From Actinomycetales bacterium (GTDB lineage: Bacteria > Actinomycetota > Actinomycetes > Actinomycetales > Kineosporiaceae): DNA of 24,009 nt. Of the stretch, positions 214 through 21,738 are shown piece by piece; the stretch's first letter is position 1, and every line of letters starts with the position of its first letter. The stretch spans positions 1 to 24,009 of the forward strand of contig JAAYAH010000185.1 of the NCBI GenBank assembly GCA_012719445.1, written 5' to 3'. The notes beneath the pieces are model-generated. The model ran no database searches and was not told the DNA's origin. It saw only the letters and a list, made by a program, of their open reading frames with translations. A program made the position numbers and the translations under genes.

Positions 214-879
214 CTACGGACCGACCCTGGCCGAGGCCGATCTGGTCCTCGCCCCGCACGGTGATCCGATAGCCGTGTCCAAGAACCCCCGGGCACGGTG
301 GTCCGTCGGCCGTGATGGGTACTGCTTCGCACCGACCGGGTTCCAGCGCACCGCCCGTTCGAAGGCCCCGGACAGGATCCGGTGGATCTGCCGCACCGAT
401 GACGCCGACAACGGGCGGCACTCGTGCCGGCGGCAGCGCTCGTCGCACTCGAGCGCCCGCACCGTCCGGTGCTCGATCGGCTTCACCCGCCCGATGCAGC
501 GCTGCCGGCACCGACGCAGCTGCGCGTAGAACGCGTCAACAACCTCTCCCCCGACCTTGCCGGCCGGCATCGATCCCAGCACCGGCCGGATGTAGCGGTC
601 GATGTAGCCGACGTAGGTCCGTCTGGTGGTCTCCTCGATATCGAGCACCTCCAGGTACCGGTCCAGCAACTGGTTGACCGTGGCCCGGGTCTGGGATTGC
701 GCCGCTCGTCCACCTGGCTCAGCAGCCGGGTGCGAACCTTCTCCGCCTCGGGACCCGCCGGGACGACCTCGCTGAGGTACAGCCGCTGCCGGGTCACCGG
801 ATCCAGACCGGCGCACACCCGCACCCGGAAGGTACCGCCTGGGAACTGGTCGACGCTCCCCCTGGCCCGCCTGCGCCAC
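214..879 (-). pseudogene. Tyrosine recombinase (phage-type integrase) N-terminal fragment; catalytic domain missing or disrupted
   Basis: Residues ~65-185 of the 221-aa ORF (VNQLLDRYLEVLDIEETTRRTYVGYIDRYIRPVLG...IHRILSGAFERAVRWNPV) match the N-terminal SAM-like core-binding domain of actinobacterial phage integrases. No R..HxxR..Y catalytic region follows in any minus-strand frame of 1-213. The gene is co-oriented with, and 150 bp from, the 3' end of tRNA-Met. Confidence 0.5.
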
Positions 880-1106: not shown

Positions 1107-1332
1107 GAGCGACGTGCCCGGCACGGCGGGCACCCTGACGCGTACGAACTGTACTCGGGATGCTCGTGCCATAGCGTCACGGACGGCACGAGCATCCCTG
1201 GCACGACGTTGCCGAGACCGGGGTGAGGGGTTGCCCCGTCCCAGTGGGTGCGGAAGCATCGGCGCGATCCGCTCGCCGAGTCCTCTCCGCGTCGGGTCGA
1301 TCCCGATCCGCGCGCGACAGGAGGCCCGCGAC

Positions 1333-2298
1333 ATGCAGGAGCCACCGACGGGAGTTGGAAAGCCCCAGCGACGCGCACATCGGCACGTCGACCGACGAGC
1401 ACGTCGGCGGCGTTGGTGGCTCACCGGAGCGGGCGTGCTCGGCGCCGGCGTCATCGCCGCGCTCGTCGTCACCCAGACCCTCGGCTCGGCCTGCGCCGCC
1501 CCTGGCATGCACGCCGCGTCACGATCCGGGAAGGCCACCTTCTACACGCTGTCCACCGGCACCGGGAACTGCTCGTTCCCTTCGGACGGCGCTGACGGGC
1601 TCTACGTGGCGCTGTCCCCCGGGGAGTACGGTGACGCAGCCGCCTGCGGCAGCTACCTGAGTGTCTCGGGGCCCAGAGGCACAGTGCGGGTGAAGGTCGT
1701 CGACCAGTGCCCCGAGTGCGAGGCCGGCCACATCGACCTGAGTCGGACGGCGTTCGCCCGCATCGGGGATCCCGCGAAGGGCGTGCTCCCGGTGACCTAC
1801 CGTCGTCTGGTCGACCCGCCCCTCCCCGGTCCGCTGAAGGTTCGGGTCAAGGAGGGCTCGTCGCGGTACTGGCTCGCCCTCCTCGTCGACAACACGGGTA
1901 ATCCGCTGTCCCGCATCGAGGTCCGGTCCGGGAGCGGTTCGTGGCAGGTCCTCTCCCGGGCCGACTACAACTACTGGATCGCCGAGAGCGGCGCCGGGGC
2001 AGGTCCCTTCCGGGTCCGGATCACGGACACCCGAGGGCACCGGCTGACTGTGACAGGAATCCGGCTCGCCCCCGGCACGATCCAGTCGACGTCCTCCCGC
2101 ATGTACTCCGCCGGAGGTGGCTCGACGAGCCGGCTGTCGACCTCGACGACGAGGATCACGAGGACGTCCACGACGACCGGGACTCTTCTCTCGACGACCT
2201 CCGTGACCACGCCCGGGACGACGAGCACCTCCTGGCAGACCGACCAGCCGTCGTCCAGCAGTCCGACCGAACCCGCCGTCGTCAGCGACGACTGCTGA
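1333..2298 (+). CDS. Secreted expansin-like protein (EXLX/YoaJ-type): DPBB domain, CBM63-like domain, Ser/Thr-rich C-terminal tail
   Basis: ATG at 1333 sits 9 nt after AGGAGG (1318-1323). A hydrophobic signal/TM segment (WWLTGAGVLGAGVIAALVV) follows. GKATFYTLSTGTGNCSF...GPRGTVRVKVVDQCPECEAGHIDLSRTAF matches the double-psi beta-barrel of expansins/RlpA. RVKEGSSRYWLALLVDNTGNP...YNYWIAESGAG...FRVRITDTRGHRL matches expansin domain 2. The C-terminus is an S/T-rich low-complexity tail ending in Cys. Confidence 0.8.
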   Translation: MQEPPTGVGKPQRRAHRHVDRRARRRRWWLTGAGVLGAGVIAALVVTQTLGSACAAPGMHAASRSGKATFYTLSTGTGNCSFPSDGADGLYVALSPGEYGDAAACGSYLSVSGPRGTVRVKVVDQCPECEAGHIDLSRTAFARIGDPAKGVLPVTYRRLVDPPLPGPLKVRVKEGSSRYWLALLVDNTGNPLSRIEVRSGSGSWQVLSRADYNYWIAESGAGAGPFRVRITDTRGHRLTVTGIRLAPGTIQSTSSRMYSAGGGSTSRLSTSTTRITRTSTTTGTLLSTTSVTTPGTTSTSWQTDQPSSSSPTEPAVVSDDC

Positions 2299-6717: not shown

Positions 6718-8721
6718 GTGGTATCGCGCGATTTGATCATCATTCTGGCCGTCGTACTCGTACTCGTCGTGGTCCTGTTGAAGTCCCTGCACGTCATCGC
6801 AGCCACCGAGGTCGGCCTGGTCACCAAGCGGTTCGGCAGGCGGCTCGGCTCGGACCAGCCGATCGCCTTCCGGGGCGAGGCCGGATACCAGGCGAAGCTG
6901 CTCATGCCGGGGCTGCGTTTCAAGCTCTGGCCGGTCTTCTCGGTCTCCAAGCACCCCTGGGTGCAGATCCCGGCGGGCGAGATCGGGGTGGTCATCGCCC
7001 AGATCGGCGCACCGCTGCCGATCGGCGCGAAGACCGCCGAGTACCGGCCCGAGTTCGCCAACTTCACGGACCTGACGGTCTTCCTGGCCGAGGGCGGCCA
7101 GAAGGGCATCCAGCGGCCGGTGTTGCCCCCCGGGACCCTGCTCCCGCTGCACCCGGTCGCCTTCCTCGTCCTCACCGCCGGGCGGGTCTACGGCCTGCCG
7201 GTCTCCAGCAACGTCGACCGCCGCAAGCCGCTGACCCCGCAGACCTTCGGGCTCACCCCCGAGCACCTCAGGGTGACCGTGGTCGCCCCGCAGGGCTGGC
7301 AGGACGTCGTCGGCATCGTCACCACCCTTGAGGGACCGGCTCCCGAGGCAGGGGACATCGCCAGCAGGCTCGGCGGGTACGCGGACATCGCGGCTCTTGA
7401 GGAGAGCGGTGCGGGTGACGCCGAGAAGATCGAGGCGATCCTGGCGTCCAAGAACGGGCTGCACAACAACTACCAGGACTACCAGGCCTTCCTCGACCAC
7501 GGCGGACGGATCGGCCTCCAGCACGACCCGCTGCTGTACGGGTCCTACCTGCTCAACCCGTTCCTGGTGCGGGTGGAGTTCGTGCCGATGCTCGTGGTCC
7601 GGCAGGGTGAGGTCGCCGTCGTGAAGTCCTACGTCGGCCTGCCCACCGTGGACACCTCGGGGCAGGAGTTCAAGTTCGGCTCCATCGTCCGCCCGGGGCA
7701 CCGGGGGATCTGGAACGAGCCGCTGCGCACCGGCAAGTACTCGATCAACCCGCGCCTGTACGCCGCGGAGATCGTCCCCACCTCGATCCTCACCCTCAAC
7801 TGGGCCAACCAGAGCTCGCAGGCGCACAACCTCGACGCGATGCTCAGCCCGATCGACGGCAAGTCCCGCGAGGGCTTCGTCTTCGGGATCGACCTCCAGG
7901 TCCAGATCCACGTGCCCGACTCCAGGGCACCGAAGGTGATCTCGATGGTGGGCACCATGCAGAACCTCGTCAACGAGGTGCTGCAGTCGGCCGTGGGCAA
8001 CTACTTCCGCAACGTGCTGCAGCAGCTCCCGGCCGTCCAGTTCATCGAGACGCGGGACGCCGTGCAGAACCACGCGCAGGAGTACATCACCGGGTACCTC
8101 GGCAAGTACGAGGTCGAGACCAAGGGCGTGTACATCCAGGACGTCGTGTTCCTGCCGGAGCTGGTCACCGTGCTCACCCAGCGCGAGATCGCCAACCAGG
8201 AGCGCTCGACGTTCGAGGAGCAGCAACGGGCCCAGATCGTCCGGGTCGACCTGGAGAAGGCGCGCGGCACCGCCGACATGCAGGCCGAGCTGGCCAAGGC
8301 CAACGTCAATGTCGACATCCAGAAGGCCGCTGCCGCCGCGAGAACGGCCGAGGCCGAGGGCGTCTCGGCGTTCACCCGGATGACGGGCCAGGCCGAGGCC
8401 GACAAGACGCAGGCGATCGGCCTGGCCCAGGCGAAGGCCGTCGAGGCGCTCGGGGTGGCCAAGGCCAAGGGGTACGAGGCCCAGGTCACGGCCCTCGGCC
8501 AGCAGGCCACCGCCGCGGTCGCGGTGGCGGGCGCGGTGGCCGACGGCCAGATCAAGATCGTTCCCGAGGTCATGGTCTCCGGGAGCGACGGCAACGGCGC
8601 CTTCACCGGACTCGCCGCAGCTCTCACCGGATCCCTCAGGGACTGGACACCGGGACGGACCGACGCCGAGGAGCGTCCCGCGGCGAACGGACGCACCGGA
8701 GCCGACGGATCCGCCGCTTGA
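6718..8721 (+). CDS. Flotillin-like SPFH/band-7 membrane protein (YqiK/FloT family), 667 aa
   Basis: GTG start after GAGGAG. N-terminal TM helix (LIIILAVVLVLVVVLL), SPFH domain, then a long Ala/Glu/Gln-rich coiled-coil tail (QERSTFEEQQRAQIVRVDLEKARGTADMQAELAKANVNVDIQKAAAAARTAEAEG...) typical of flotillins. Confidence 0.8.
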   Translation: MVSRDLIIILAVVLVLVVVLLKSLHVIAATEVGLVTKRFGRRLGSDQPIAFRGEAGYQAKLLMPGLRFKLWPVFSVSKHPWVQIPAGEIGVVIAQIGAPLPIGAKTAEYRPEFANFTDLTVFLAEGGQKGIQRPVLPPGTLLPLHPVAFLVLTAGRVYGLPVSSNVDRRKPLTPQTFGLTPEHLRVTVVAPQGWQDVVGIVTTLEGPAPEAGDIASRLGGYADIAALEESGAGDAEKIEAILASKNGLHNNYQDYQAFLDHGGRIGLQHDPLLYGSYLLNPFLVRVEFVPMLVVRQGEVAVVKSYVGLPTVDTSGQEFKFGSIVRPGHRGIWNEPLRTGKYSINPRLYAAEIVPTSILTLNWANQSSQAHNLDAMLSPIDGKSREGFVFGIDLQVQIHVPDSRAPKVISMVGTMQNLVNEVLQSAVGNYFRNVLQQLPAVQFIETRDAVQNHAQEYITGYLGKYEVETKGVYIQDVVFLPELVTVLTQREIANQERSTFEEQQRAQIVRVDLEKARGTADMQAELAKANVNVDIQKAAAAARTAEAEGVSAFTRMTGQAEADKTQAIGLAQAKAVEALGVAKAKGYEAQVTALGQQATAAVAVAGAVADGQIKIVPEVMVSGSDGNGAFTGLAAALTGSLRDWTPGRTDAEERPAANGRTGADGSAA

Positions 8722-10159: not shown

Positions 10160-11443
10160 TCACCCCCCCGATGCGGGCAGTTCAGCGTAGGCGAGATCGA
10201 CCGCCTGCGACCCCTCGATCTCCCGGCTGTCCAGCCACCCGTCGGGAAGAGTGACCCGCCGGGACGCACCGCCCCGCCCACGCTGCCCCTCCGCCGGCGA
10301 GCCGGGGTACGGCTGCGCGACGTCGAGACCCGCGACGACCTCGTCGAACTCGGCGAGCGAGGAGACCAACGCCAGCCGGGCCCTGACCTCGTGCCCCACC
10401 ACGTACCCCTTGAGGTACCAGGCCACGTGCTTGCGGATGTCACGGCAGGCCCGCTGCTCCGCGAGCGCCGGCCCGGCGGCCTCCCCGGCACCGACATCCG
10501 TCGCGTAGTACCCGACGAGCAGGACGACGTGTCGTCGCATGGTCGCCAGCACCTCACCGAGGGACGGTCGCACCCGCTCCGGGCGCCCGGCCATGCCCGC
10601 CACGAGGTCGGCGAACAGCCACGGCCGGCCGAGACAGCCACGGCCGACCACCACCCCGTCGCACCCGGTCTCGGCCACCATGCGGACCGCGTCGTCCGCC
10701 GACCAGACGTCCCCGTTGCCGAGCACCGGGACGGTGGTCACGACCTCCTTGAGCCGGGCGACGGCCGACCAGTCCGCGGTGCCCGAGTAGTAGTCGGCGG
10801 CGGTCCGGGCGTGCAGGGCGACGGCAGCGGCGCCCTCGGCCTCCGCGATCCTCCCGGCGTCGAGGTAGGTGAGGTGGTCGGCGTCGATGCCCTTGCGCAT
10901 CTTCACGGTCACCGGGACGCCGTGCGGTTCGGCCGCCCGGACCGCACTGCCGACGACCCGCGCGAACAGTCCCGACTTCCAGGGCAGCGCGGAGCCCCCT
11001 CCCTTGCGGGTGACCTTGGGCACCGGGCAGCCGAAGTTGAGGTCGACGTGGTCGGCCCGGCCCTCGGCGAGCAGCATCCGGACGGCGGAGCCGACGATGT
11101 CGGGGTCCACGCCGTACAGCTGGACGCTGCGCGGATGCTCGTCGGGATCGTGGGTGATCAGGCGCAGGGACTCCTCGTTGCGTTCCAGGAGCGCGCGCGA
11201 GGTGACCATCTCGCTGACGAACACCCCGGCGTCCGCCGCGAGGCCCGGCCTGCGACCCCTGCCGGGGTCCTGCCCGGCGTCCGCCCCGGTGCACTGACCG
11301 GCCCCGGGTGCGGCAGGGTGACCGCCGAGAGCCCACTCCCGGCACAGCCGCCGGAACGCCCGGTTGGTGATCCCCGCCATCGGCGCGAGCACCACAGGGG
11401 TCGCGACGTCGATGGGTCCGATCCGCAACGGCACGACATCCAT
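10160..11443 (-). CDS. dus: tRNA-dihydrouridine synthase (Dus family)
   Basis: VLAPMAGITNRAFRRLCRE...VDLNFGCPVPKVTRKGGGSALP...VTVKMRKGID...ALHARTAADYYSGTADW...VLGNGDV match Dus. Start taken at MDVVPLRIG (CAT at 11441-11443 verified). The ORF extends upstream to 11665, probably not translated. A ~35-aa Gly/Ala/Pro-rich insertion follows the PMAG motif. Confidence 0.85.
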   Translation of the reverse strand: MDVVPLRIGPIDVATPVVLAPMAGITNRAFRRLCREWALGGHPAAPGAGQCTGADAGQDPGRGRRPGLAADAGVFVSEMVTSRALLERNEESLRLITHDPDEHPRSVQLYGVDPDIVGSAVRMLLAEGRADHVDLNFGCPVPKVTRKGGGSALPWKSGLFARVVGSAVRAAEPHGVPVTVKMRKGIDADHLTYLDAGRIAEAEGAAAVALHARTAADYYSGTADWSAVARLKEVVTTVPVLGNGDVWSADDAVRMVAETGCDGVVVGRGCLGRPWLFADLVAGMAGRPERVRPSLGEVLATMRRHVVLLVGYYATDVGAGEAAGPALAEQRACRDIRKHVAWYLKGYVVGHEVRARLALVSSLAEFDEVVAGLDVAQPYPGSPAEGQRGRGGASRRVTLPDGWLDSREIEGSQAVDLAYAELPASGG

Positions 11444-11495
11444 TCTGGCAATCGCCTCTGACACCGCGACGCCCGGCAGTTGATGCCAGGAACTC

Positions 11496-11630
11496 GCCCC
11501 CCCCGGAACCACTCCCGCTGTCACGGATCGTGATCTCGGCGATCGCGTGACCGCGCAGGCCACCGGGAGACCACTCCCGCTGTCACGGATCCAGCGACCG
11601 ACCCCGTATCGGAGTCCCTTTTCGATACCC
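11496..11630. promoter_or_regulatory. Regulatory-looking intergenic block with a C8 homopolymer, two perfect 21-bp direct repeats and a short palindrome
   Basis: C8 homopolymer at 11497-11504. Two perfect 21-bp direct repeats CCACTCCCGCTGTCACGGATC at 11509-11529 and 11571-11591 (62-bp period). Small palindrome GTATCG-11nt-CGATAC at 11606-11628. The block lies between divergent dus (start 11443, -) and operon gene 1 (start 11687, +). Confidence 0.5.
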
Positions 11631-11686
11631 TGCGTGTCGCCGGTCGTGGCAGCACGGGGATGCACCGAGGACGACCAGGGGGACGC

Positions 11687-11974
11687 GTGGCAGATCTGAA
11701 CATCGACACGGCAGTACTACGGGAGGCCGGCGCGCAACTGCGGATTGTCGCCACCGAGTTCGTCCACGCCAACGTGCGCAGCGACGACGTGGCCGAAGCC
11801 GTCGGGCACGATCGACTCGCCGAGCGGATCCGCGACTTCGCCCACAACTGGGACGACAAGCGGGAGCAGATGGTCGAGGGTGTCGGGCAGCTCGCCGAGA
11901 TCGCCAGCGGGGTCGGTGAGGTCTTCGAACAGGTGGAGACCGAGTTCGTCAAGGCCCTGGAGGGCGGGTCGTGA
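11687..11974 (+). CDS. Small (~95 aa) all-helical protein with a central W-x-D turn; WXG100/Lap-like candidate; first gene of the six-gene operon
   Basis: GTG at 11687 with GGGGGA RBS 4-10 nt upstream (alternative ATG at 11660). VADLNIDTAVLREAGAQLRIVATEF...FAHNWDDKREQMVEGVGQLAEIASGVGEVFEQVETEF. The stop TGA overlaps the gene 2 GTG (GTGA at 11971-11974). Confidence 0.55.
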   Translation: MADLNIDTAVLREAGAQLRIVATEFVHANVRSDDVAEAVGHDRLAERIRDFAHNWDDKREQMVEGVGQLAEIASGVGEVFEQVETEFVKALEGGS

Positions 11975-13473
11975 GCCGCCCGATCGACTGGACACCGCTG
12001 GGCCGCTCCCGCGACCCCGTCCCCGGCGATCCGTTGGTCGTCGAGACGACGGGCAGGCACTACCAGGAGGTGGCCCAGACCATCACCACGGCAGCCGAGC
12101 GGCTGCGAAGGATCGCCGATCACGAGCAGATGACCAGCAAGGCCGTCGAAGCCTTCCGGGAGAAGGCCGAGCAGGTCGCCACCGACATCCAGAAGGCCCA
12201 CCAGCGATATCAGGCCGTCGGCGATGCTCTGGTCACCTACGCCGCCCACCTCTCCGATGCCCAGGACACCTCCGTCGAGGCGTTGACCAAGGCTCGGGTC
12301 GCCGAGACCGACAAGCAGCTCGCCGACCGCAAGGCCGAGACCGCCCGCACCGCCGCCGAGACCGCGACCGACCCCGACACCCGCGCCGTCCAGGAGGCCG
12401 CTGCCCGACAGGCCGAGGACGACGTCGCAGCCGCCGAGCGGGAACTCGCCCGGGCCACCGGCCTGCTCGCCACCGCGATCGAGCTCCGCGACCGCGCCGC
12501 GACCGCCGCCATCGCCCTCATCGACCCCGCCCTGAGCAGCGGCGGACTGACCGACAACTGGTGGGACGACTGGGGTCGGGTCACCGTCCAGTGGATCTCC
12601 AAGATCTCCGGGGCAGTGGCCGCCGTCTGCGGCATCCTCTCCCTGGTCGTCGGCTGGATCCCTGTCATCGGCCAGGCCCTAGCCGCGATCCTCGGCACCA
12701 TCGCCCTCATCGCCTCGATCATCTCCCTGCTGGCAAACCTCACCCTGGCGCTGACGGGCGACGGCAGCTGGTCGGCCGTCGTCCTCGACGTCATCAGCGT
12801 CGCCACCTTCGGCCTGGGCCGGGTAGCCAGCGCGTCCGCGCGGCTGAGCTTCCAAGGAGCCAAGGGCTCGGCACGGCTCGCGGCGGGACGTCTCGCAGCA
12901 CAATCCCCTGGAGTGCGTTCTGCACTCGGTCTCCCGGCCAACGCCTCGGCCAGGGAGGTTATCCGCAGGTTACTGAAATCAGACGATCTTGCAGCACTCA
13001 GCCGGAGATCAGCACGACGAATGGCCAAGAACGCGAACCGTCATGGCCGGATCTTCTCCGCATCCAGCACCTCACGCTCGCTCAGCTCCATCGGGACGGA
13101 CTTCACCGACTCATTGCGCACGGTATCCCAGAGAACCAGTTGGAACAACATCGTCAGCAAGACCCGAACCGAGTTCAGCGAAATCGTCGATCTGGCGCGG
13201 TCTCAACAATTCATGCCCGCTCTCGACCGCGCACTGGGGGAAGCAGGAATCGCCACTGATTTCCAAACGCTCAGCAGAATGGAGACGTCGCTACTCGGAC
13301 AGACGGAGGTGAGCACCTCGATCAGCAGGGCCGTTTCCAGTAACCGCACGTTTTTCTTGTCCACAGCTATCAGCGCTGGAGTTGACTCCTACCAGTTGGT
13401 AGCCACAGGGTCCGGTTCCCAAGAGAACGGTCCCGCGCAGCTACACGTCCCGGTGCCAACAGGATCGCGATGA
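11971..13473 (+). CDS. 500-aa membrane protein: N-terminal ~215-aa helical domain, 2-3 TM helices, C-terminal ~175-aa domain encoded in lower-GC DNA; candidate polymorphic-toxin-like protein
   Basis: N-terminus MSRPIDWTPLGRSRDPVPGDPLVVETTG... is followed by long A/E/R/T-rich helices. TM block ISGAVAAVCGILSLVVGWIPVIGQALAAILGTIALIASIISLLANLTLAL. GC drops from ~70% to ~50-55% from ~12950 (about aa 325) to the stop. The stop overlaps the next start (ATGA). Confidence 0.65.
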   Translation: MSRPIDWTPLGRSRDPVPGDPLVVETTGRHYQEVAQTITTAAERLRRIADHEQMTSKAVEAFREKAEQVATDIQKAHQRYQAVGDALVTYAAHLSDAQDTSVEALTKARVAETDKQLADRKAETARTAAETATDPDTRAVQEAAARQAEDDVAAAERELARATGLLATAIELRDRAATAAIALIDPALSSGGLTDNWWDDWGRVTVQWISKISGAVAAVCGILSLVVGWIPVIGQALAAILGTIALIASIISLLANLTLALTGDGSWSAVVLDVISVATFGLGRVASASARLSFQGAKGSARLAAGRLAAQSPGVRSALGLPANASAREVIRRLLKSDDLAALSRRSARRMAKNANRHGRIFSASSTSRSLSSIGTDFTDSLRTVSQRTSWNNIVSKTRTEFSEIVDLARSQQFMPALDRALGEAGIATDFQTLSRMETSLLGQTEVSTSISRAVSSNRTFFLSTAISAGVDSYQLVATGSGSQENGPAQLHVPVPTGSR

Positions 13474-14075
13474 CTTTCAACGACACCTGTCCACACAAGC
13501 AAGCACTCGTCGGATACCGCCTGAGTGCACCAGCGAGTTGGGCGGCACTCCCCCTGGAAGGCGAATCCGGGTGGGTGGACGAGGTTATAGCACTGCTGGC
13601 TCCCCGTCCCGAGACAAGGGCGACACTGCGGCAAGATCTCCAACTGGTTCATCGCGCACTGAACTCTGAGCAACACCTCGGAATCGGCGCGTGGATGCCG
13701 TTCCCCGAGACCGGGTCAGTGTTAGGTGCCATGGCCGTCGACTTGATGATTCCGAACGAGGGATCCGGAAAAGCCGTGGACATCGACGAGTACCGCGAGT
13801 TACTCGCCACCGTCAAACGGCAGGGAGTAAGGGTCATCTCACGGGAAATCTTCCGGGACACCGTGAACGCTGGTCCTTGCCTCACCGCCAGAGAGACAGT
13901 CATGATGGATCGGAGAGTCGTCGAGTACCATGTGGTCTACTCCGTTTTCCCACTGGACTCCTGCGATGCCATTGAACTCACATTCTGCACCCCCCATCTC
14001 GAACTCGCAGCAGCCCTCGACACCGACAGCCGACTGATAGCTGACTCGCTCACCTTGTCAACAGGTGAACGATGA
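13470..14075 (+). CDS. Hypothetical soluble protein, 201 aa (paralog A of a tandem pair), low-GC
   Basis: ATGA-coupled to both neighbours. Shares with the next gene an N-terminal L-x-L/S-P-A-x-W-x-x-x-P-L motif and a C-terminal (L/E)L(T/C)F(C/S)TP...L(E/D)...(L/I)...S(L/V) motif. Confidence 0.6.
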   Translation: MTFNDTCPHKQALVGYRLSAPASWAALPLEGESGWVDEVIALLAPRPETRATLRQDLQLVHRALNSEQHLGIGAWMPFPETGSVLGAMAVDLMIPNEGSGKAVDIDEYRELLATVKRQGVRVISREIFRDTVNAGPCLTARETVMMDRRVVEYHVVYSVFPLDSCDAIELTFCTPHLELAAALDTDSRLIADSLTLSTGER

Positions 14076-14743
14076 TCAATACCTTCCGCGTATCCGGCCA
14101 TCAGCTGGACCTCGTTCTTCCGGCTACCTGGGTAACCATCCCCCTGCAACCGCAGAGCGTGCGGGCCCGAGATGTGCGGATTCTCGTCCAACGCCAGTTC
14201 CGGGGGGTCGACAACCAACCGCTGCTCCGAACCGAGACGGAACACCAACTCCTTGTGTCCGCTGACCGCGCAGCTGATGCAGGAGCCGACTTCCTCGCCC
14301 TGTCCCTCATGCAGGTCGCCGGTGTGCCCATCCCGGCCTCCATGGTTGCTCACTCGATTCCACTGGAGTCGGGTGACCCTAGAGAGAGCACCGGGTGTCT
14401 CGCTGTCCTCGATCGCATCATAGAAAGTCTCGGTGATGTCGAGAGCCAGCATCCCGCAGCCCGACTCGCCCGCGGCAGGGTGGCAGCGGGGGATGTGCTT
14501 CGTAGAGTCGCCCACCGCCCTGGTCATGGCATCGAGGGCTCAGATCCGCCCACGGTGATCGTCGCGGACTACTGGCTCCCTTGGCCAGACGACCATGGCA
14601 CCGCGCTCCTGTGCTTCTCTACCCCGCTGACCACACACCAGGAACCCATGCTCGAACTCTTCGACGCCATCGTGGAGAGCGTTCACTGGACCTCACCCGG
14701 TGATTCGGAGGACATTGATCCAGAGGAGATCCGTGACCGCTGA
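14072..14743 (+). CDS. Hypothetical soluble protein, 223 aa (paralog B of the tandem pair), intermediate GC
   Basis: ATGA-coupled upstream. Shares motifs with the 201-aa protein (LDLVLPATWVTIPL ; ALLCFSTPLTTHQEPMLELFDAIVESV). Confidence 0.6.
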   Translation: MINTFRVSGHQLDLVLPATWVTIPLQPQSVRARDVRILVQRQFRGVDNQPLLRTETEHQLLVSADRAADAGADFLALSLMQVAGVPIPASMVAHSIPLESGDPRESTGCLAVLDRIIESLGDVESQHPAARLARGRVAAGDVLRRVAHRPGHGIEGSDPPTVIVADYWLPWPDDHGTALLCFSTPLTTHQEPMLELFDAIVESVHWTSPGDSEDIDPEEIRDR

Positions 14744-15974
14744 TTCCGACCAGATACACCGAGACGACAGCCCGAACGGGTCGGCTGAGCTGGCCCCGAT
14801 GTCCCCCACCAGGCCGTCGGTTGCTGACTGCGCGCGCCTCGTTGCCGCTCCGGGAACCATCATCATCGACCTACCGGGGCGTGATCGGCGCGAGTTCCGA
14901 GTACCCGAGGACGCGTCAGCCGCTGGAGTCATCAAGGGCCATTCCAGCTCATATTTCGTGTTAACAACGTCCTTGGGCAGGCCCGTCGCAGCATTCCCCA
15001 TGACAGAATGGGTCCCACCCGGCGAACTCATAAACTTCGATCTTCTCACCTCACGCAATACAAACGGGCGAGCACGAGCTCACCTACCTTGGCCGCTCGA
15101 CGAGTTCATCTCGACCGGAGGTCTGGATTCGTCACCGGTTGTTATTTCGGATACCCCTCCCGAGTGCGAGATACACCGGGTCATCCCACCCAGCCGTGCC
15201 GGCGCCATCTCGTTTGTTCTATCCTTCTTCGGCCCGATCCTTCTTCTCGTTTCGATTCTCATCACAGAATTCCTCGCATCACTGCTGGAAAACAGGGGGA
15301 TCACCAACGCAGTCAGCCCAATCGCTTTCACCCTTATCACCTCGTCTGTCATCGCCCAAGCCGGTGCATTGGGTGCCGTCTGGCACATCACGTATTCACA
15401 TACATCACCTCCCCGAGGAATGCAACCCAGGACACTCCAACCAATTCCCGATCACCCGCTCCCCCGACTGTTCACCCGATCAGCAAGCATTCAGATCGAC
15501 GACATGGGGACATTGGTGAGTGATGTCGACCGAATGGCGATCCGATTCCCGACGCGAGGTATCGTCGCGATCACGAATTGGGTCGTTCACACCGACAAGG
15601 GATCACCAGTATCACTGGATCTCTGCGCTGGAGACCGCTGCCTTGTCCGACTGCCCTGGTCCGATTGGTTCCCCGATACGTCTATGGATCACATCACGAA
15701 AGCACTGCGCCTGCAACCAGAGCTGCGACCTGCGGAAAAACAGGGGACTGTCATCTCACCTCAAGTCGTCAATGACAGGAAACCCACCGTCGGCCCGGAT
15801 CTCAGGTTGACGGTGCTCATGCTTCTGACCTGCTCACTGGCTTTCATGTCGGCTGTCGGTTACTCGCCCGGACTCGCAACCGTGACACGCATCTCGAGTG
15901 GAGGTGCCATAGCCCTGATCCTCTCGTTCCATGCCCTCGCAACAGTCCTCATCAAGTGGGGCGAGCGTTCTTGA
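14700..15974 (+). CDS. Four-TM membrane protein P1 (~415-424 aa), low-GC copy of a tandem paralog pair; start may be GTG 14700 or the in-frame GTG at ~14734
   Basis: N-terminal soluble domain (EWVPPGELINFDLLTS...HLPWPLDEFIS), TM pair (AISFVLSFFGPILLLVSILITEFLASLL ; VSPIAFTLITSSVIAQAGALGAVW), a middle domain (RLPWSDWFPDTSMDHITKALRLQPE) and a C-terminal TM pair. It overlaps the upstream stop, and its stop overlaps the next start. Confidence 0.65.
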   Translation: MIRRTLIQRRSVTADSDQIHRDDSPNGSAELAPMSPTRPSVADCARLVAAPGTIIIDLPGRDRREFRVPEDASAAGVIKGHSSSYFVLTTSLGRPVAAFPMTEWVPPGELINFDLLTSRNTNGRARAHLPWPLDEFISTGGLDSSPVVISDTPPECEIHRVIPPSRAGAISFVLSFFGPILLLVSILITEFLASLLENRGITNAVSPIAFTLITSSVIAQAGALGAVWHITYSHTSPPRGMQPRTLQPIPDHPLPRLFTRSASIQIDDMGTLVSDVDRMAIRFPTRGIVAITNWVVHTDKGSPVSLDLCAGDRCLVRLPWSDWFPDTSMDHITKALRLQPELRPAEKQGTVISPQVVNDRKPTVGPDLRLTVLMLLTCSLAFMSAVGYSPGLATVTRISSGGAIALILSFHALATVLIKWGERS

Positions 15975-17269
15975 CTCCCCGGAGACCCGAGACGCCTGTC
16001 TCCGACCTCTCGGACCTGCCAGCTACGCAGAGCCGTACCGCTGCCGCGCCCGCCCGGGTCGAGTTGGTTCCCTTCGCACCCGCCGATCCCGAGGTGGCCC
16101 GTTCCACCTTCCTCGTCGCGACTCCCGAGGAGATCACCCTCGTCACCTCGTGGCGGCAGCCGCGCACCTGGCAGGTCGGCCGGGACGTCAGCAGCTACAC
16201 GATCCACACCGACCTCCGGCACAACATGCCGCCCTACCTGCTCGTCCTCCTCGACGACGCCGGAGCCCCCGTCGCCTCGCTCCCGCTCCGGGACTGGGTT
16301 CCCGAGGGGGAACTGCTCGCGCACGACCTCTTCATCCAGCCGGAGACGCGGCGTCGGACCGGCTCCCGGATGCCGTGGCCCCTGGACTCGTTGGTGGCCG
16401 CCGCCGGGCTCTCCCCGTACCGCGGGGATCACCTGGACGACAACGCCGTGGACCGCGCCCGGGAGCAGTGGGCTCCCCCGACTCCCGCCAGCACGTGGGT
16501 GCTCGTGCTCGGCATGCTCGCACCGGGCATCTGGCTCCTGACCGCGATCCTCATCGGGGCCGTGGCTGTCGTCCTCGACGCGCGAGGTCTCGTCGATGTC
16601 GCCGGAGTGCTGGCGTTGGCGTTCCTCGGGCTGGCCTGTGCCGTCCCCCTGCACCAGCTGAACCGGCTTCGCCGGCTCGCTCGCCCCCGGCCTGCCGAGG
16701 GAGTGCCGGACGGCGCCCGGGTACTGCGACCCGTTCCGGGGCGGGCTGTGTCCCGCCAGTTCTCCGCGACGTCCTGGCTGGCCGTGACCGGGGACGGGGT
16801 GGTCCTGCACGCGCCGGACGGCCGGGAGCTCGTGTTCCCGTCGGCCGGTCCCACCGCCGTCACCCGGTGGACGGTCGCGCGGGATGGGGACCGGCCCACC
16901 TTCCTCGACCTGTATGCAGGGAGGCACCACCTGACTCGTCTGGCCTGGGACGACTGGTTCCCCGACGGCTCGACCGAGCACCTGCGACAGGCGCTCGGCA
17001 TCATCCCCCAGCCGAGCGACACCACCGCCGACCCCGCGACGCTGCCGTGGCGGCTCGACGACTCCTGCTCCGCTGGTGACACCGGGCTCGTTCTCGCCCT
17101 GCCGTCGCTGATCACCTGTCTCGTCGTGGCCCTGTCCGTCAGGCTCTACTCGACGCCCCTCGCCTGGACGGTGGGGATCAGCTGCGCGCTCACGGTCCTC
17201 GTGGTGACGGGCACACACTGGCTCGGCTGGCGGGTCCAGCGGGATCGGGAGCCGACACCACAGTGGTGA
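15956..17269 (+). CDS. Four-TM membrane protein P2 (~432-437 aa), high-GC paralog of P1; start GTG 15956 or TTG 15971 (TTGA overlap with the P1 stop)
   Basis: Clear homology to P1 across all blocks (DWVPEGELLAHDLFIQ...MPWPLDSLVA ; RLAWDDWFPDGSTEHLRQALGIIPQ) with the same 2+2 TM topology, but ~70% GC versus ~52% for P1. Confidence 0.65.
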   Translation: MGRAFLTPRRPETPVSDLSDLPATQSRTAAAPARVELVPFAPADPEVARSTFLVATPEEITLVTSWRQPRTWQVGRDVSSYTIHTDLRHNMPPYLLVLLDDAGAPVASLPLRDWVPEGELLAHDLFIQPETRRRTGSRMPWPLDSLVAAAGLSPYRGDHLDDNAVDRAREQWAPPTPASTWVLVLGMLAPGIWLLTAILIGAVAVVLDARGLVDVAGVLALAFLGLACAVPLHQLNRLRRLARPRPAEGVPDGARVLRPVPGRAVSRQFSATSWLAVTGDGVVLHAPDGRELVFPSAGPTAVTRWTVARDGDRPTFLDLYAGRHHLTRLAWDDWFPDGSTEHLRQALGIIPQPSDTTADPATLPWRLDDSCSAGDTGLVLALPSLITCLVVALSVRLYSTPLAWTVGISCALTVLVVTGTHWLGWRVQRDREPTPQW

Positions 17270-17351
17270 TCTCCGCTGTGCGTGACCAGCGCGAAAGGCC
17301 GTTCCAGGGGATCGGACGCTCGATGATCGGACGAGGACGATCGTCGGTGAC

Positions 17352-17375
17352 CCGGTGAGCGCCATTGCTCACCGG
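17352..17375. terminator. Perfect 9-bp hairpin CCGGTGAGC-gccatt-GCTCACCGG between the convergent P2 and FG-GAP genes
   Basis: Read directly from the sequence. It lies between the stops at 17269 (+) and 17389 (-). Confidence 0.5.
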
Positions 17376-17388
17376 ATCGCGGCAGACC

Positions 17389-19029
17389 CTAGACCGCCGT
17401 GCTGTCCGACGCCAGCACCGACCCGTACCTCGTGCCTGTGATGTTCCCCGTGGACAGGGTGACCTCGGTGGGGTCGACGATCTCGAACCCCGCGAAGACC
17501 CGGATGTACACCAGCCCGGCGTCCGCGACTCCGCCGACGTCCTGGCCGGGGACGGCGACCTGTGGGTCCCACGCCCCGGTCCCGACCAGGCGCGCCGACA
17601 GAGTCGCACCGAGCCGGTCACCGGCCTCCGGGGTCCCTGACAGGCCGTCTCCCTGGGTGAACCGGACCGCCTCTGGATCGCAGCCCTTCCGGTTCGTGTA
17701 GCGCCCGAGGCAGTCGAGGCGGAGGTGGTACACCGCTCCGGCGTCGGTGACCGGCCCGACGTCCTCACCAGGAGCGCCGACGACCAGACCGGCGGTCTGC
17801 CGCTCGTAGCTGTCGAGTTCCCCGTTGAATGCTGTCGCGGCCCCGAACGCGTCACCGCGCTCGGCGGTCCCTGGGATGCCACCGGTGCCCTCTGCCAGGG
17901 TGGCCCGGTAGCTGAAGGCGCTCTCCTCCAGCGGGTCGAACCCGAACAGCTCGACCGTGCCGGCCTCACGGGCGCCACCGACGTCCTCGCCCGGCACGCC
18001 GACGGCCAGCAGCTCGGAGTCGGCCGCGACAGAGGCCCCGAACCGGTCACCCCGCTCGGCGCGCCCCGGGGTCTTCGCGCTGTCCTGGGAGACGCGCTGC
18101 GCGGCGGACACGGAGCCCTCCTCCGAGTCGACGAACAGAACCGCGACCGAGCCGGCGTCGTCCGCGGTACCGACGTCATCGTGCGGAACGCCGACGACCA
18201 GCACCGTCGGCGCCTGTTCGTCGTCGACCATCTCCGGGTCGTACTCGTCGGCCGCCCCGAGGATCTCGCCGAACCGGTCGCCCGCCTCGGCCCGGTCCCC
18301 CCGGCCCTCGCCCGCCGGCACCGGGTCGTCCAGGGTGATGGTTCCCAGATGGGTGACGTCGACCGGCCTGCCGTGGCGCCCGGGGGCGTCCAGCCGGAAG
18401 TGCTCGACGGCCCCCGCGTCCACCAGCCCTCCGACGTCCCGCCCCGGGGCACCGATCCACAGGTCGAGGACTCCCTCCAGCCGTTCCCTCGGTCGGGTGC
18501 GCCTGGTCACCGCGACAGCCGCGCCGAACTCGTCACCGGGTGCGCCGGTCGGTGCGCTGACCGGAACGGTCGCGGTCCCGAAGCCCTCGGCGGAGTTGCG
18601 GGTGAGGAACACCCGGCCGGCCCCGTCCGCGCCCGGGGCGCCGATCACCAACGACGGGCAGTCGCTGCCGTCGAGGTCCGTGATGAGCACGGCGGCTCCG
18701 AGCCGATCGGTCACCGCGCCCGCGCCAGCGCCGATCGAGGACCGGGTCAGCAGTCGGGTGCCGGTCTCCTCGAGCCGCACGTCGACCGCGCCCCGTCCCT
18801 CCCCGTGCCCGGGGAGGCCGACGGCGACGTCGTCCGCGCCGGCGGCACAGGCCTCCACGGCGGTCCCTGCGGTGGCCGCTGTCGTGGACCCGGTGCTCGC
18901 CGCACCGCCGGTGCCCCCGCCACCGGAACAACCCGCGATCCCACCCGCGACCAGCCCCGTCACCAGCACGGCCGCGAGCGCGACCGAGGGTCTCGTCACC
19001 GGGGTCCCGCACCGGATCATCGCTCGCAT
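17389..19029 (-). CDS. Secreted lipoprotein with FG-GAP / integrin-alpha-like beta-propeller repeats (start probably MRAMIR at 19029; ORF open to 19122)
   Basis: Signal peptide plus lipobox (LVAGGIAGCSGG). At least five repeats of the form G(A/V)PGxDVGGxxDAGAVxxF (e.g. VAVPGQDVGGVADAGLVYI, GAPGEDVGPVTDAGAVYHL, VGVPGEDVGGAREAGTVELF). Confidence 0.75.
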   Translation of the reverse strand: MRAMIRCGTPVTRPSVALAAVLVTGLVAGGIAGCSGGGGTGGAASTGSTTAATAGTAVEACAAGADDVAVGLPGHGEGRGAVDVRLEETGTRLLTRSSIGAGAGAVTDRLGAAVLITDLDGSDCPSLVIGAPGADGAGRVFLTRNSAEGFGTATVPVSAPTGAPGDEFGAAVAVTRRTRPRERLEGVLDLWIGAPGRDVGGLVDAGAVEHFRLDAPGRHGRPVDVTHLGTITLDDPVPAGEGRGDRAEAGDRFGEILGAADEYDPEMVDDEQAPTVLVVGVPHDDVGTADDAGSVAVLFVDSEEGSVSAAQRVSQDSAKTPGRAERGDRFGASVAADSELLAVGVPGEDVGGAREAGTVELFGFDPLEESAFSYRATLAEGTGGIPGTAERGDAFGAATAFNGELDSYERQTAGLVVGAPGEDVGPVTDAGAVYHLRLDCLGRYTNRKGCDPEAVRFTQGDGLSGTPEAGDRLGATLSARLVGTGAWDPQVAVPGQDVGGVADAGLVYIRVFAGFEIVDPTEVTLSTGNITGTRYGSVLASDSTAV

Positions 19030-19291
19030 CGCCTCGTCCTCACCTCGGGAACCCACCCGGTGCAGGACCAGCGCGGGACTGGGCACCCCTGGGAACCGCG
19101 CACGGGCAGGACACGCTGTCACCGGGATGATCGCGATTCGGGTGGCACCGTTACGTGAGGTCGGTCACGCGAGGTGGCGCTGGGGACCGGTCAACGGGAC
19201 GGCGTCCTGCGAGTGGCCGGGTGCACCCCGGCCGCTCACGGTCTCAGGCGGGTCAGCGGTCGCGGGGCGGGTCAGCGGTCGCGGACCGGGA

Positions 19292-19335
19292 TCACCGCTG
19301 ATCGTCGCGGCCGTCGCCCCGACGATCAGCGGTCA
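19292..19335. terminator. ~16-bp imperfect inverted repeat (TCACCGCTGATCGTCG-13nt-CGACGATCAGCGGTCA) just downstream of the glyQS stop
   Basis: Read from the sequence; 15/16 pairing. It lies 9 nt after the glyQS stop (19344, minus). A 19-bp tandem direct repeat GGCGGGTCAGCGGTCGCGG x2 is adjacent at 19242-19281. Confidence 0.4.
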
Positions 19336-19343
19336 CCCGACGG

Positions 19344-20753
19344 TCAGCAGCCGAGCAGGCGGGTGGACAGCCACCCGGCGACCTGGCTCAGGGCCACCCG
19401 CTCCTGGGTCATCGAGTCCCGCTCCCGGATGGTCACCGCCTCGTCGTCCAGGGTCTCGAAGTCGACGGTGATGCAGTACGGGGTGCCGATCTCGTCCTGG
19501 CGGCGGTACCGGCGTCCGATGGCCTGGGCGTCGTCGAACTCGACATTCCAGAACGACCGCAGCTCCGCCGCCAGCGCCCGCGCCTTCGGCGACAGGTCGG
19601 CGTTCCGGGACAACGGCAGCACGGCGGCCTTCACCGGCGCCAGCCGCTTGTCCAGGCGCAGCACGATCCGCTTGTCCACCCCGCCCTTGGTGTTCGGCGC
19701 CTCGTCCTCGTCGTAGGCCTCGATGAGGAAGGCCATCATCGAACGGGTCAGCCCGGCGGCGGGCTCGATGACGTAGGGGACCCAACGTTCGCCCTTGGCC
19801 TGGTCGAAGTACGACAGGTCGACCCCGGAGTGCTGGGAGTGGGTGCCGAGGTCGAAGTCGGTCCGGTTGGCGATGCCCTCCAGCTCGCCCCACTCGGAAC
19901 CGGTGAACCCGAACCGGTACTCGATGTCGACGGTCCGCTTCGAGTAGTGCGAGAGCTTCTCCGTCGGGTGCTCGTAGTGCCGCAGGTTCTCCTTGACGAT
20001 GCCGAGGTCGACGTACCACTCGGTGCGGTAGTCGATCCAGTACTGGTGCCACTCCTCGTCGGTGCCCGGCTCGACGAAGAACTCCATCTCCATCTGCTCG
20101 AACTCGCGGGTCCGGAAGATGAAGTTGCCCGGGGTGATCTCGTTGCGGAACGACTTGCCGATCTGGCCGATGCCGAACGGCGGCTTCTTCCGCGCGGACT
20201 GCTCGACGTTCTTGTAGTTGACGAAGATGCCCTGCGCGGTCTCCGGTCGCAGGAAGTGCAGGCCGCTCTCGTCCTCGACCGGGCCGAGGTAGGTCTTCAG
20301 CAGGCCGTTGAACATCCGCGGCTCGGTCCAGGCGCCCCGGGTGCCGCAGTTGGGGCACGGGATGCCGGCGAGGCCACCCTCGGGAGCCCTGCCCTTGCGC
20401 TCGACGAACTCCTCCTCGAGCTGGTCGGCCCGGTAGCGGCGGTGGCAGGACTGGCACTCCACCAGCGGGTCGACGAAGGCGTTGACGTGACCGGAGGCCT
20501 CCCACACCTGCCGGGGCAGGATGACCGAGGAGTCCAGGCCGACGACGTCCTCGCGCCGGGTGACCATGGCCCGCCACCACTGCCGCTTGACGTTCTCCTT
20601 GAGTTCGACGCCCAGCGGCCCGTAGTCCCAGGCGGACCGGGTGCCGCCGTAGATCTCGCCGCACGGGTAGACGAACCCGCGGCGCTTGCAGAGGTTGACG
20701 ACGGCATCGAGGCGGGCTTCGGACGACGGCTTCGTGGCCACGGTGAACACCAT
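19344..20753 (-). CDS. glyQS: Glycine--tRNA ligase, class II dimeric (alpha2) form, 469 aa
   Basis: [41 protein letters not shown]...[25 protein letters not shown]...[12 protein letters not shown] match GlyQS. Start at MVFTVATK (CAT at 20751-20753 verified). The ORF is open upstream to 21086. Confidence 0.9.
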
Positions 20754-20814
20754 CCGGCTGGGTGTCGGCGGATCTCGGGATGATCGACGCGCCAGGGGCA
20801 CGCGATGGACCAGG

Positions 20815-21738
20815 TTACTCGGCCGCCGGATCCCCGACGGAGCCGGCGTCCACGGTCCGGCCTGCGATGTCCGCCGTCCCACCCGCGGGGCCCACGGCCC
20901 GGCCTGCATCGTCCGCGGGTCGGCCCGCGGCGTCCACCGCGCCGCCGTAGCGGCGGTCCCGGCTGGCGTACTCCTCGATGCCGCGCCACAGCACCCGGCG
21001 GTCGACGTCCGGCCAGAGCACGTCGAGGAACACCAGTTCCGCGTACACCGACTGCCAGACCAGGAAGTTCGAGGTGCGCTGCTCACCGGAGGTGCGCAGG
21101 AACATGTCGACGTCCGGCAGGTCCGGCTCGTCGAGGAAGCGGGCGACGGTCCGCTCGTCCACCCGGCTCGGGTCCAGCCGCCCGGCGGCGGCCTCCCTGG
21201 CGATGGCCCTGGCCGCGTCGGCGATCTCGGCCCTGCCGCCGTAGTTGACGCACATGGTCAGGGTGAGCACGTCGTTGTCGCGGGTCAGCTCCTCCGCCGC
21301 CTCCAGCTCCTTGATCACGCTCCGCCACAGCCGCGGTCGTCGTCCGGCCCAGCGGACCCTGACCCCCCAGGAGTTCAGCAGGTCCCGACGTCGCCTGATG
21401 ACGTCCCGGTCGAAGCCCATGAGGAAGCGGACCTCCTCGGGCGACCGACGCCAGTTCTCCGTGGAGAACGCGTAGGCGGACAGGTGCCGCACGCCGATGT
21501 CGATGGCCCCCGCGACCACGTCCAGGAGGGCCGCCTCGCCCGCCTCGTGCCCCCTGGTCCTCGGCAGGCCGCGGGCATTCGCCCATCTCCCGTTGCCGTC
21601 CATGACGACCGCGACGTGCCGCGGCACCAGTTCCGGCGGGAGGAGCGGCGGGCGGGCACCGGAGGGGTGCGGCGGAGGCGCCTGGGGGACGACGCGGGGA
21701 CGCGCGACGACGCCGGTCCCGCTCCGACGGTGGGCCAT
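20815..21738 (-). CDS. uppS: Isoprenyl transferase / undecaprenyl-diphosphate synthase (UppS) with an unusual ~45-aa repetitive C-terminal tail
   Basis: [13 protein letters not shown]...[19 protein letters not shown]...VNYGGRAEI...[17 protein letters not shown]...RRYGG match UppS. The start ATG shares one nt with the recO stop (TGATG). The tail ([29 protein letters not shown]) is encoded by a 25-bp imperfect direct repeat. Confidence 0.85.

Follow-up and report, generated by a model that had tools for sequence, protein, structure and literature searches.

We analyzed a 24,009-bp contig (JAAYAH010000185.1, referred to below as the window) from a metagenome-assembled genome (MAG) labelled Actinomycetales bacterium, with an overall GC content of 69.6%, and focused on two adjacent genes, P1 and P2, that encode paralogous polytopic membrane proteins. 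Both belong to an operon of six plus-strand genes (11660 to 17269) located between a dus-like open reading frame (ORF) and glyS, comprising, in order, g104, g500, g201, g223, P1, and P2; the only other gene in this interval encodes an FG-GAP protein on the minus strand. The stops and starts of successive operon genes overlap, with junctions of GTGA, ATGA, ATGA, a GTG at 14733 that overlaps the TGA of g223, and TTGA at 15971. A scan of the locus for promoters and terminators found nothing exceeding shuffle expectation. The longest ORFs of P1 and P2 span 14700 to 15974 (424 amino acids [aa]) and 15956 to 17269 (437 aa), respectively. P1 likely starts at the GTG at 14733, preceded 4 nt upstream by AGGAG, a better ribosome-binding site than that of the longest ORF, giving a gene of 14733 to 15974. 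P2 likely starts within the 3' end of P1, either at the TTG at 15971 (15971 to 17269) or at the GTG at 15956. Its public record (NLT55857.1, locus tag GXX79_15130) begins at the GTG at 16094 (391 aa), dropping the stretch RVEL..F.P..PE(I/V)AR; we placed the start at 15956 or 15971 because the stretch upstream of 16094 is conserved in the allele of a sister strain, described below, and in other homologs. A further candidate for the P1 N terminus, P0003, was rejected as a spurious gene call on a chimeric 672-nt ENA contig (L011), in which the assembly has fused unrelated, lower-GC sequence (nt 1 to 262) to the 3' end of P1.

The first two genes of the operon point to an Esx-type, or type VII secretion system (T7SS), substrate and its partner. 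g104 (11660 to 11974, plus strand) encodes a small helical protein of 104 aa and is a candidate WXG100-like partner, its stop overlapping the start of g500. Small ORFs immediately preceding the Blastococcus g500-like genes share 43% identity with g104, and the Streptomyces equivalent shares 24%; g104 has no Pfam match of its own, and its homologs upstream of g500-like genes match EspC/WXG100 below threshold (E values of 4e-4 to 0.03). g500 (11971 to 13473, plus strand) encodes a candidate Esx/T7SS substrate. Its helical N terminus (aa 17 to 188) matches the T7SS_signal family PF21725 at 36.8 bits (cutoff of 27; E value of 5e-9), and is followed by a cluster of small-residue-rich hydrophobic helices at aa ~210 to 285, predicted from hydropathy to be transmembrane (TM), and by a hydrophilic C-terminal tail of 200 aa with no known domain. 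Residues 3 to 114 are 33% identical to the N terminus of a 1,634-aa DUF6531 (Rhs-type) protein encoded on a Streptomyces aurantiacus plasmid. The gene for this protein is followed by a member of the SMI1/KNR4 family, a classic family of polymorphic-toxin immunity proteins, and the N-terminal domain of g500 therefore heads proteins of the toxin kind.

The next two genes, g201 (13470 to 14075, plus strand, its start forming the ATGA overlap with g500) and g223 (14072 to 14743, plus strand), encode soluble proteins in which hydropathy indicates no convincing TM helix. They are distant paralogs: both match a single Streptomyces protein, and they share the N-terminal motif L-x-x-P-x-x-W-x-x-(I/L)-P-L. 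A structural model of g223, built with 13 homologs and g201, has a mean predicted local distance difference test (pLDDT) score of 87.4 and a Mog1/PsbP/LpqN/DUF1795(Eag)-like fold, such that both proteins are predicted to adopt a Mog1/PsbP-like alpha-beta-alpha architecture. Neither matches the DUF1795 model in Pfam, and a sequence-profile search of the PDB with these proteins was empty. We consider g223 a candidate cytoplasmic chaperone for the TM helices of g500 or, alternatively, a candidate immunity protein.

P1 and P2 are homologous end to end, with 28% identity over 393 aa (BLASTP E value of 2e-43), and the three short sequence blocks from which the initial annotation had recognized them as paralogs all lie within this alignment. 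The four TM helices proposed at that stage are likewise borne out. Hydropathy peaks occur at matching places in the two proteins, and an AlphaFold2 (AF2) model of P2 has helices at ~177 to 206, 212 to 242, 374 to 398, and 400 to 429, which form two TM hairpins; the second helix of P1 is only moderately hydrophobic. The N-terminal and middle domains of P are homologous to each other (hhalign probability of 96.5%, E value of 8e-10, 87 columns), and P therefore consists of two repeats of a domain plus a TM hairpin. Each repeat begins with a domain of ~100 aa whose modelled fold, a beta-sandwich with a C-terminal helix adjoining the hairpin, is pleckstrin homology (PH)-like. The loops within the hairpins are only 5 to 7 residues long and the segment after the second TM helix is rich in Lys and Arg (in Arg in P2); given the positive-inside rule, the topology predicted from sequence is likely N-in/C-in, with both PH-like domains cytoplasmic. 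Alleles of P are 23 to 33% identical in all pairwise comparisons. Conservation is highest in the PH-like domains (32 to 36%) and lowest in the TM hairpins and linkers (10 to 25%), and six positions are invariant in the family alignment (W114, G151, P259, F269, W334, and F335 in P2 numbering).

P is an undescribed actinobacterial membrane-protein family with no Pfam or NCBIfam model. P1, P2, and ten homologs matched no Pfam family at an E value of <0.1, including the bacterial PH (bPH) models (PF03703 and relatives) and DUF443; PADLOC, Pfam, and NCBIfam returned no match for P1, P2, g201, or g223; and a sequence-profile search of the PDB with P gave no significant match. Word-index homolog searches retrieved only P2 itself with P2 and nothing with P1. 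An exhaustive profile search covering 1.84 billion representatives recovered 20 family members at an E value of <1e-3, four of which (besides P2) reached <1e-30, one of these being a 121-aa fragment of P1. The close full-length relatives are P0002, P0004, and P0005, with P0002 the nearest to P1 (33% identity), and about ten more distant proteins of 400 to 480 aa have a like layout. All members that bear a source name are called hypothetical protein. We note that P0005 occurs on a contig (L004) with no visible g500, where only 1.5 kb of upstream sequence is available. The gene upstream of P0005 (923 to 1471) encodes a 182-aa protein with two TM helices and a near-threshold match to DUF6585 (26.7 bits against a cutoff of 27.7), which resembles another small protein made of a TM hairpin and a soluble domain.

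The composition of the locus changes abruptly within the operon. A low-GC island of ~3 kb (12951 to 15974) covers the C-terminal region of g500 together with g201, g223, and P1, and has a GC content of 59.5%, versus 71.1% in the rest of the window. It starts inside g500, at codon ~327, and ends within ~100 nt of the P1 stop; among 1,275-nt windows outside the island, none has a GC content below 66.7% (mean, 71.3; standard deviation, 2.3). The 5' part of g500 (to ~12950) has a GC content of 71.2% (88.7% at third codon positions) and the 3' part one of 57.9% (67.2%). The longest ORF of P1 has a GC content of 58.3% (59, 52, and 64% at codon positions one to three; 58.5% for 14733 to 15974), versus 72.3% for P2 (73, 55, and 88%). 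The compositional contrast between the two genes reported by the initial annotation is thus genuine, but its figure of ~52% for P1 is too low, values of 53 to 55% being reached only in some 150-nt windows, and the low GC is a property not of P1 alone but of the whole island. That annotation had also overlooked the membership of g201 and g223 in this unit, the start of the island inside the toxin candidate, the internal repeat of P, and the mostly cytoplasmic mass predicted for P.

Comparison with related strains shows that the ends of the island are also breakpoints of homology. A sister strain, represented by contig L001 (Logan, ERR14064717), is 100% identical to the window over 16310 to 19364 and has no DNA homology to it left of 16044. 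Between these points, the 5' part of P2 contains a mosaic segment (16044 to 16310, plus strand, codons ~30 to 118), with 62 to 92% identity to L001 per 60-nt block, that marks a recombination junction with the sister-strain allele. For this segment we obtained a nonsynonymous rate (dN) of 0.229 and a synonymous rate (dS) of 0.335 (dN/dS, 0.68); it is the only comparison for which the ratio was computed, since at 28% protein identity the synonymous sites of P1 and P2 are saturated. Left of the shared flank, the order in L001 is a g201-like fragment (47% identical to g201), P0002, a 46-aa ORF, g227 (39% identical to g223), and a P2 allele (P2'). P0002, which occupies the P1 locus, is 33% identical to P1 and has a GC content of 58%. 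Left of the breakpoint, the proteins of these two close strains are only 33 to 47% identical. A further contig, L013, matches 16604 to 18582 of the window at 99.95% identity.

A related lineage, represented by L002 (from the same sample as L001) and L003 (from another sample), has the gene order of the window (g500-like, g195, g216, and P0004) and supplies the left boundary. In g500, L002 and the window share 81.5% DNA identity up to 12950, the very position at which the GC content of the window falls. Beyond this point similarity is detectable only at the protein level, at 49% for the g500 C terminus, 48% for g201 (against g195), 46% for g223, and 27 to 30% for P, which is the fastest-diverging gene of the cassette. 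Downstream of P0004, these contigs carry a 39-codon remnant of the 3' end of a P2-type gene with an in-frame stop, followed directly by the glyS side. A second module thus appears in three states of erosion: L001 retains g227 together with P2', the window has kept just P2, and L002 and L003 show the remnant; tandem paralogs accompany the first two states (P1 with P2 and P0002 with P2'). The breakpoint in the sister strain, the differing alleles, and the decayed remnant in a third lineage together identify the locus as a hotspot of cassette replacement. These comparisons show that the conserved 5' part of g500 and the downstream P2-type gene bound a 3-kb unit, P1 included, that is exchanged by recombination, and that P1 and P2 are ancient, deeply diverged paralogs whose 28% identity falls within the range among alleles (23 to 33%), in keeping with the initial view that the pair did not arise by simple in situ duplication.

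The source of the cassette is less clear than its mobility. The initial annotation had proposed acquisition of one copy from a lower-GC donor: arrival by recombination is evident, but none of the collections searched yielded a lower-GC taxon with a close relative of P1, and the nearest relative of P1, P0002, has an equally low GC content and sits at the same locus. All cassette alleles have lower GC than their flanks (58% for P1, 58% for P0002, 62% for P0004, and 63 to 66% for g223-type genes). Since low GC is common to all cassette alleles of this lineage, a pool of cassettes that has long circulated among these bacteria explains the composition as well as a foreign donor does. Plasmid searches gave no homolog of P1 and phage searches no DNA match to the island, so that a mobile-element origin could not be shown. 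Exact look-ups with P0001 and g104 matched no contig, and the look-up with the FG-GAP protein and P0035 returned only the conserved flank already known.

The association between g500 and P extends to distant actinobacteria. Scans for the locus yielded three loci in the genome collection and one in the metagenome collection. Wherever the sequence downstream of a g500-like gene is readable, a P gene lies directly downstream (6 of 6 genes, from L005, L006, L007 with two, L008, and L009). Four of the five clusters also contain a g223-like gene; in the remaining one, the short contig L005, the downstream 192-aa ORF matched nothing. In Streptomyces sp. NA04227 the order is a g104-like gene, a T7SS_signal/TM protein gene (PF21725 recorded), P, a g223-like gene, and a g201-like gene. 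The same linkage occurs in Blastococcus sp. TF02-09, in an Actinomycetota MAG, and in an ENA contig (L005), where a WXG100 gene adjoins the cluster. A single class of T7SS_signal/TM proteins thus has P as a constant companion. We also observed that Blastococcus aurantiacus DSM 44268 (L007, 3185 to 12616) carries two complete tandem modules, each with a g104-like, a g500-like, and a P-like gene, with g223-like genes on either side; the second copy of P has diverged strongly (E value of 8e-26 to the family hidden Markov model versus 6e-79 for the first). This organism is a cultivable carrier in which the system could be tested.

We hypothesize that g500 is a polymorphic, membrane-targeting Esx/T7SS effector encoded with a WXG100-like partner, g104. 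In this scheme g201 and g223 would hold the TM helices of g500 soluble ahead of export, and P1 would be the cognate membrane immunity protein of g500. The cassette, from codon ~327 of g500 to the P1 stop, is swapped by homologous recombination, with the 5' part of g500 as the left anchor and the P2-type gene as the right anchor. P2 would be left over from an older, displaced module and may have been kept as an orphan immunity gene against an allele of other strains. Overall, we think the locus is best explained as an Esx effector cassette of the polymorphic kind in which P1 is the candidate membrane immunity protein and P2 an orphan, a reading that we hold with about even confidence. Our confidence is high in the evolutionary and structural description of the cassette, that is, in its homology, composition, breakpoints, predicted folds, and gene linkage. 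From this description we infer secretion and toxicity for g500, chaperoning for g201 and g223, and immunity for P1, the last being an assignment that we would put slightly short of an even balance. The initial suggestion that these proteins resemble membrane-embedded immunity proteins is strengthened by the linkage of g500 and P, the variable copy number of P, the decayed remnant, and the Rhs-type/SMI1 context of the g500 N terminus, all of which are consistent with such a role. More specifically, the locus may combine an Esx (T7SSa) TM-helix effector, Eag-like chaperones that are convergent or shared with those of type VI secretion system (T6SS) prePAAR effectors, and a new PH-like/TM-hairpin immunity family, with effector tip, chaperones, and immunity gene swapped as one low-GC cassette that leaves orphan immunity genes behind; we offer this fuller combination only as a tentative possibility.

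Several observations weigh against the effector-immunity interpretation. No recognizable toxin domain was found in g500 with Pfam or NCBIfam, and, instead of an assortment of exchanged folds, its C-terminal region forms a single conserved family. No ecc (T7SS machinery) genes occur in the 24-kb window or near the Streptomyces locus. The Mog1/PsbP fold is also used by the immunity proteins Tsi3 and TplEi, so g201 and g223, rather than P, could confer immunity. P is predicted to lie almost wholly in the cytoplasm and membrane, and conservation peaks in the PH-like domains, where the invariant Trp and Phe motifs are found; a conserved biochemical function or a role as an adaptor would account for this just as well. 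Finally, the window is itself the assembled contig of a MAG, and L011, a second assembly that matches the P1/P2 junction, is a low-coverage, partly chimeric contig of 672 nt that may share its sample.

The most probable alternative is that P is a producer-side accessory of g500, such as a membrane dock, an insertion partner, or an export adaptor, and that g201 and g223 are the immunity proteins. Conservation of W114, W334, and F335 from the MAG to Streptomyces would suggest a conserved interaction instead of an arms race, and a P gene comes after every g201- or g223-like gene of L001, such that the two families could pair. There is also a precedent in the membrane-anchored bPH proteins DdE and DdF (YdbS/YdbT-like), which have been implicated in the export of a leaderless bacteriocin (PMC8657885). 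An accessory would, however, not be expected to vary between one and two copies per g500, to be orphaned, or to decay, and P is the most divergent component among the cassette alleles. Moreover, it is P and not the g223-like gene that sits immediately 3' of g500 in four distant taxa, its start overlapping the g500 stop in L005 and L006. We regard an accessory role as rather doubtful.

We consider it unlikely that the genes form a nonantagonistic, Esx-delivered envelope or developmental module whose hypervariability reflects other pressures, for example recognition by phages or epibionts. Such a module would be compatible with the lack of a recognizable toxin domain and with the conserved gene set, including a single P for each g500 in both Streptomyces and Blastococcus, and Esx substrates of Actinomycetales can defend against epibionts without being classical toxins (PMC13622651). 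Yet alleles of ~30% identity beside flanks of 100% identity, orphans and remnants, and a swapped low-GC module are the classic signature of toxin-immunity and kin-discrimination loci, and an N-terminal domain of the g500 type heads an Rhs-type toxin trailed by SMI1/KNR4.

The adjacency of P1 and P2 could also be a chimera of two strain variants created by metagenome assembly. Besides the MAG origin of the window, this would draw on the coexistence of several strain variants of the locus in public samples and on the fact that L011 ends exactly at the variant point at 16045 and begins with 262 unrelated nt. Against this, L011 matches 15636 to 16045 at 100% identity across the P1 stop and P2 start, and the TTGA overlap of stop and start resembles the other operon junctions. 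The window allele at 16044 to 16310 differs from that of L001, the only other known allele, and so was not borrowed from that strain. An assembly chimera is, on this evidence, very improbable. Local tandem duplication followed by drift or a local mutation bias, which would fit the adjacency, common strand, and common architecture of P1 and P2, is the least probable explanation and already contradicted, since the two are no closer to each other than to alleles of other strains and taxa, GC differs at all three codon positions and shifts within ~100 nt at the P1 stop, the low-GC tract reaches 1.8 kb upstream over three other genes and into g500, and in the sister strain another gene takes the place of P1 while P2 is the same.

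For the effector-immunity interpretation, the closest worked example by analogy is the Staphylococcus aureus toxin TspA, a membrane-depolarizing T7SSb substrate encoded with tandem polytopic TsaI immunity genes (PMC7456083, PMC9484751); recombination among T7SS immunity paralogs is documented in that species (PMC9484751). In both systems a protein targeted to the T7SS combines a helical N-terminal domain with hydrophobic helices (membrane active in TspA), nonidentical polytopic membrane paralogs lie downstream on the same strand, and strain polymorphism is strong, with recombination-driven changes in copy number. P is nevertheless unrelated in sequence to TsaI and lacks a DUF443 match, and it has four TM helices and two large, predicted cytoplasmic PH-like domains, whereas TsaI has five TM helices and an Nout-Cin orientation. 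The locus described here has two copies compared to about ten, is actinobacterial (presumably T7SSa/Esx), has a T7SS_signal domain instead of LXG, and contains two extra soluble genes; its toxin and immunity roles are putative.

The mode of replacement resembles that of the orphan C-terminal toxin/immunity modules of CdiA and Rhs proteins, in which the variable 3' end of the effector gene and the genes downstream of it form a lower-GC unit that is replaced within the conserved 5' part, and displaced modules persist and erode. The low-GC replaceable tip and eroding downstream orphans of the present locus have the same character. They differ in that what has been displaced survives as candidate immunity genes, with no fragment of a toxin tip detected, and in that the variable part of g500 is one homologous family (49% identity between alleles) and not a series of unrelated toxin folds.

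The known proteins whose architecture comes closest to that of P are membrane-anchored bPH proteins of the YdbS/YdbT type, among them DdE and DdF from the enterocin DD14 locus (PMC8657885, PMC2817789). These also consist of repeated units of a TM hairpin and a PH-like domain (three units in YdbT) and are encoded in loci for membrane-active antibacterial peptides. P fails the bPH sequence models, with no bPH match in Pfam at an E value of <0.1, and differs further in the reversed order within the unit (domain, then hairpin), in having two units instead of three, and in its own conserved motifs, D-W-V-P-E and L-P-W-x-x-W-F. For g201 and g223 the analogy is with the Eag (DUF1795) chaperones EagT6 and SciW, which shield the TM domains of T6SS prePAAR effectors (PMC7773334). 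Like these, g201 and g223 appear to be cytoplasmic and are encoded beside a TM-helix effector candidate that would need to be kept soluble before export. They differ in lacking a DUF1795 match in Pfam, in their larger size (200 to 223 aa), and in a T7SS rather than T6SS context, and their binding of TM helices is only putative.

The operon is set among housekeeping genes on the minus strand, namely leuA, recO, uppS, glyS (19344 to 21086), dnaG, and a gene for a dGTPase-like HD protein. The dus-like ORF (10160 to 11665, minus strand) was named from a reading of its translation. Its longest form, starting at a GTG at 11665, overlaps the ATG start of g104 at 11660; the first ~70 residues look nonhomologous, so the true start is probably further in, which would leave a short divergent promoter region. 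Convergent to P2 lies the 577-aa ORF of the FG-GAP protein (17389 to 19122, minus strand), which has FG-GAP repeats and a membrane-anchor- or lipoprotein-like N terminus (LVAGGIAGCSGGGG). This gene is 100% conserved in L001 and absent in the L002/L003 lineage, where the P2 remnant abuts the glyS side. Elsewhere in the window, a 667-aa ORF with an SPFH/Band 7 domain (6718 to 8721, plus strand) lies between dnaG and the dGTPase-like gene; it is overlapped by long opposite-strand ORFs, as is typical of high-GC DNA, and its gene model is ambiguous. An ORF at 1114 to 2298 (plus strand) contains DPBB_1 and Expansin_C domains and encodes a bacterial expansin-like protein. The adjoining ORF (214 to 879, minus strand) has a phage-integrase SAM-like N-terminal domain and may mark another acquired segment.

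Antibacterial Esx effectors of actinobacteria and their immunity proteins are poorly characterized, and most of what is known comes from the LXG toxins of firmicute T7SSb systems. The locus described here is a compact and conserved cassette of five genes that has so far escaped annotation and encodes a small helical partner, a T7SS_signal/TM protein, P, and one or two proteins of predicted Mog1/PsbP fold. It occurs in Streptomyces, Blastococcus, and uncultured Actinomycetales. Variation among natural strains already marks out the unit that is exchanged and where its breakpoints lie, and with them candidate pairs of g500 with P1 and of the L001 allele with P0002, together with P2 as a candidate orphan. 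An Eag-like chaperone in a T7SS context would, if true, be new, and the locus could show whether chaperoning of TM effectors of the Eag type exists beyond the T6SS. Should the immunity interpretation be wrong, P would still represent an undescribed family of membrane-anchored, tandem PH-like proteins with invariant Trp and Phe motifs that is tied to Esx substrates.

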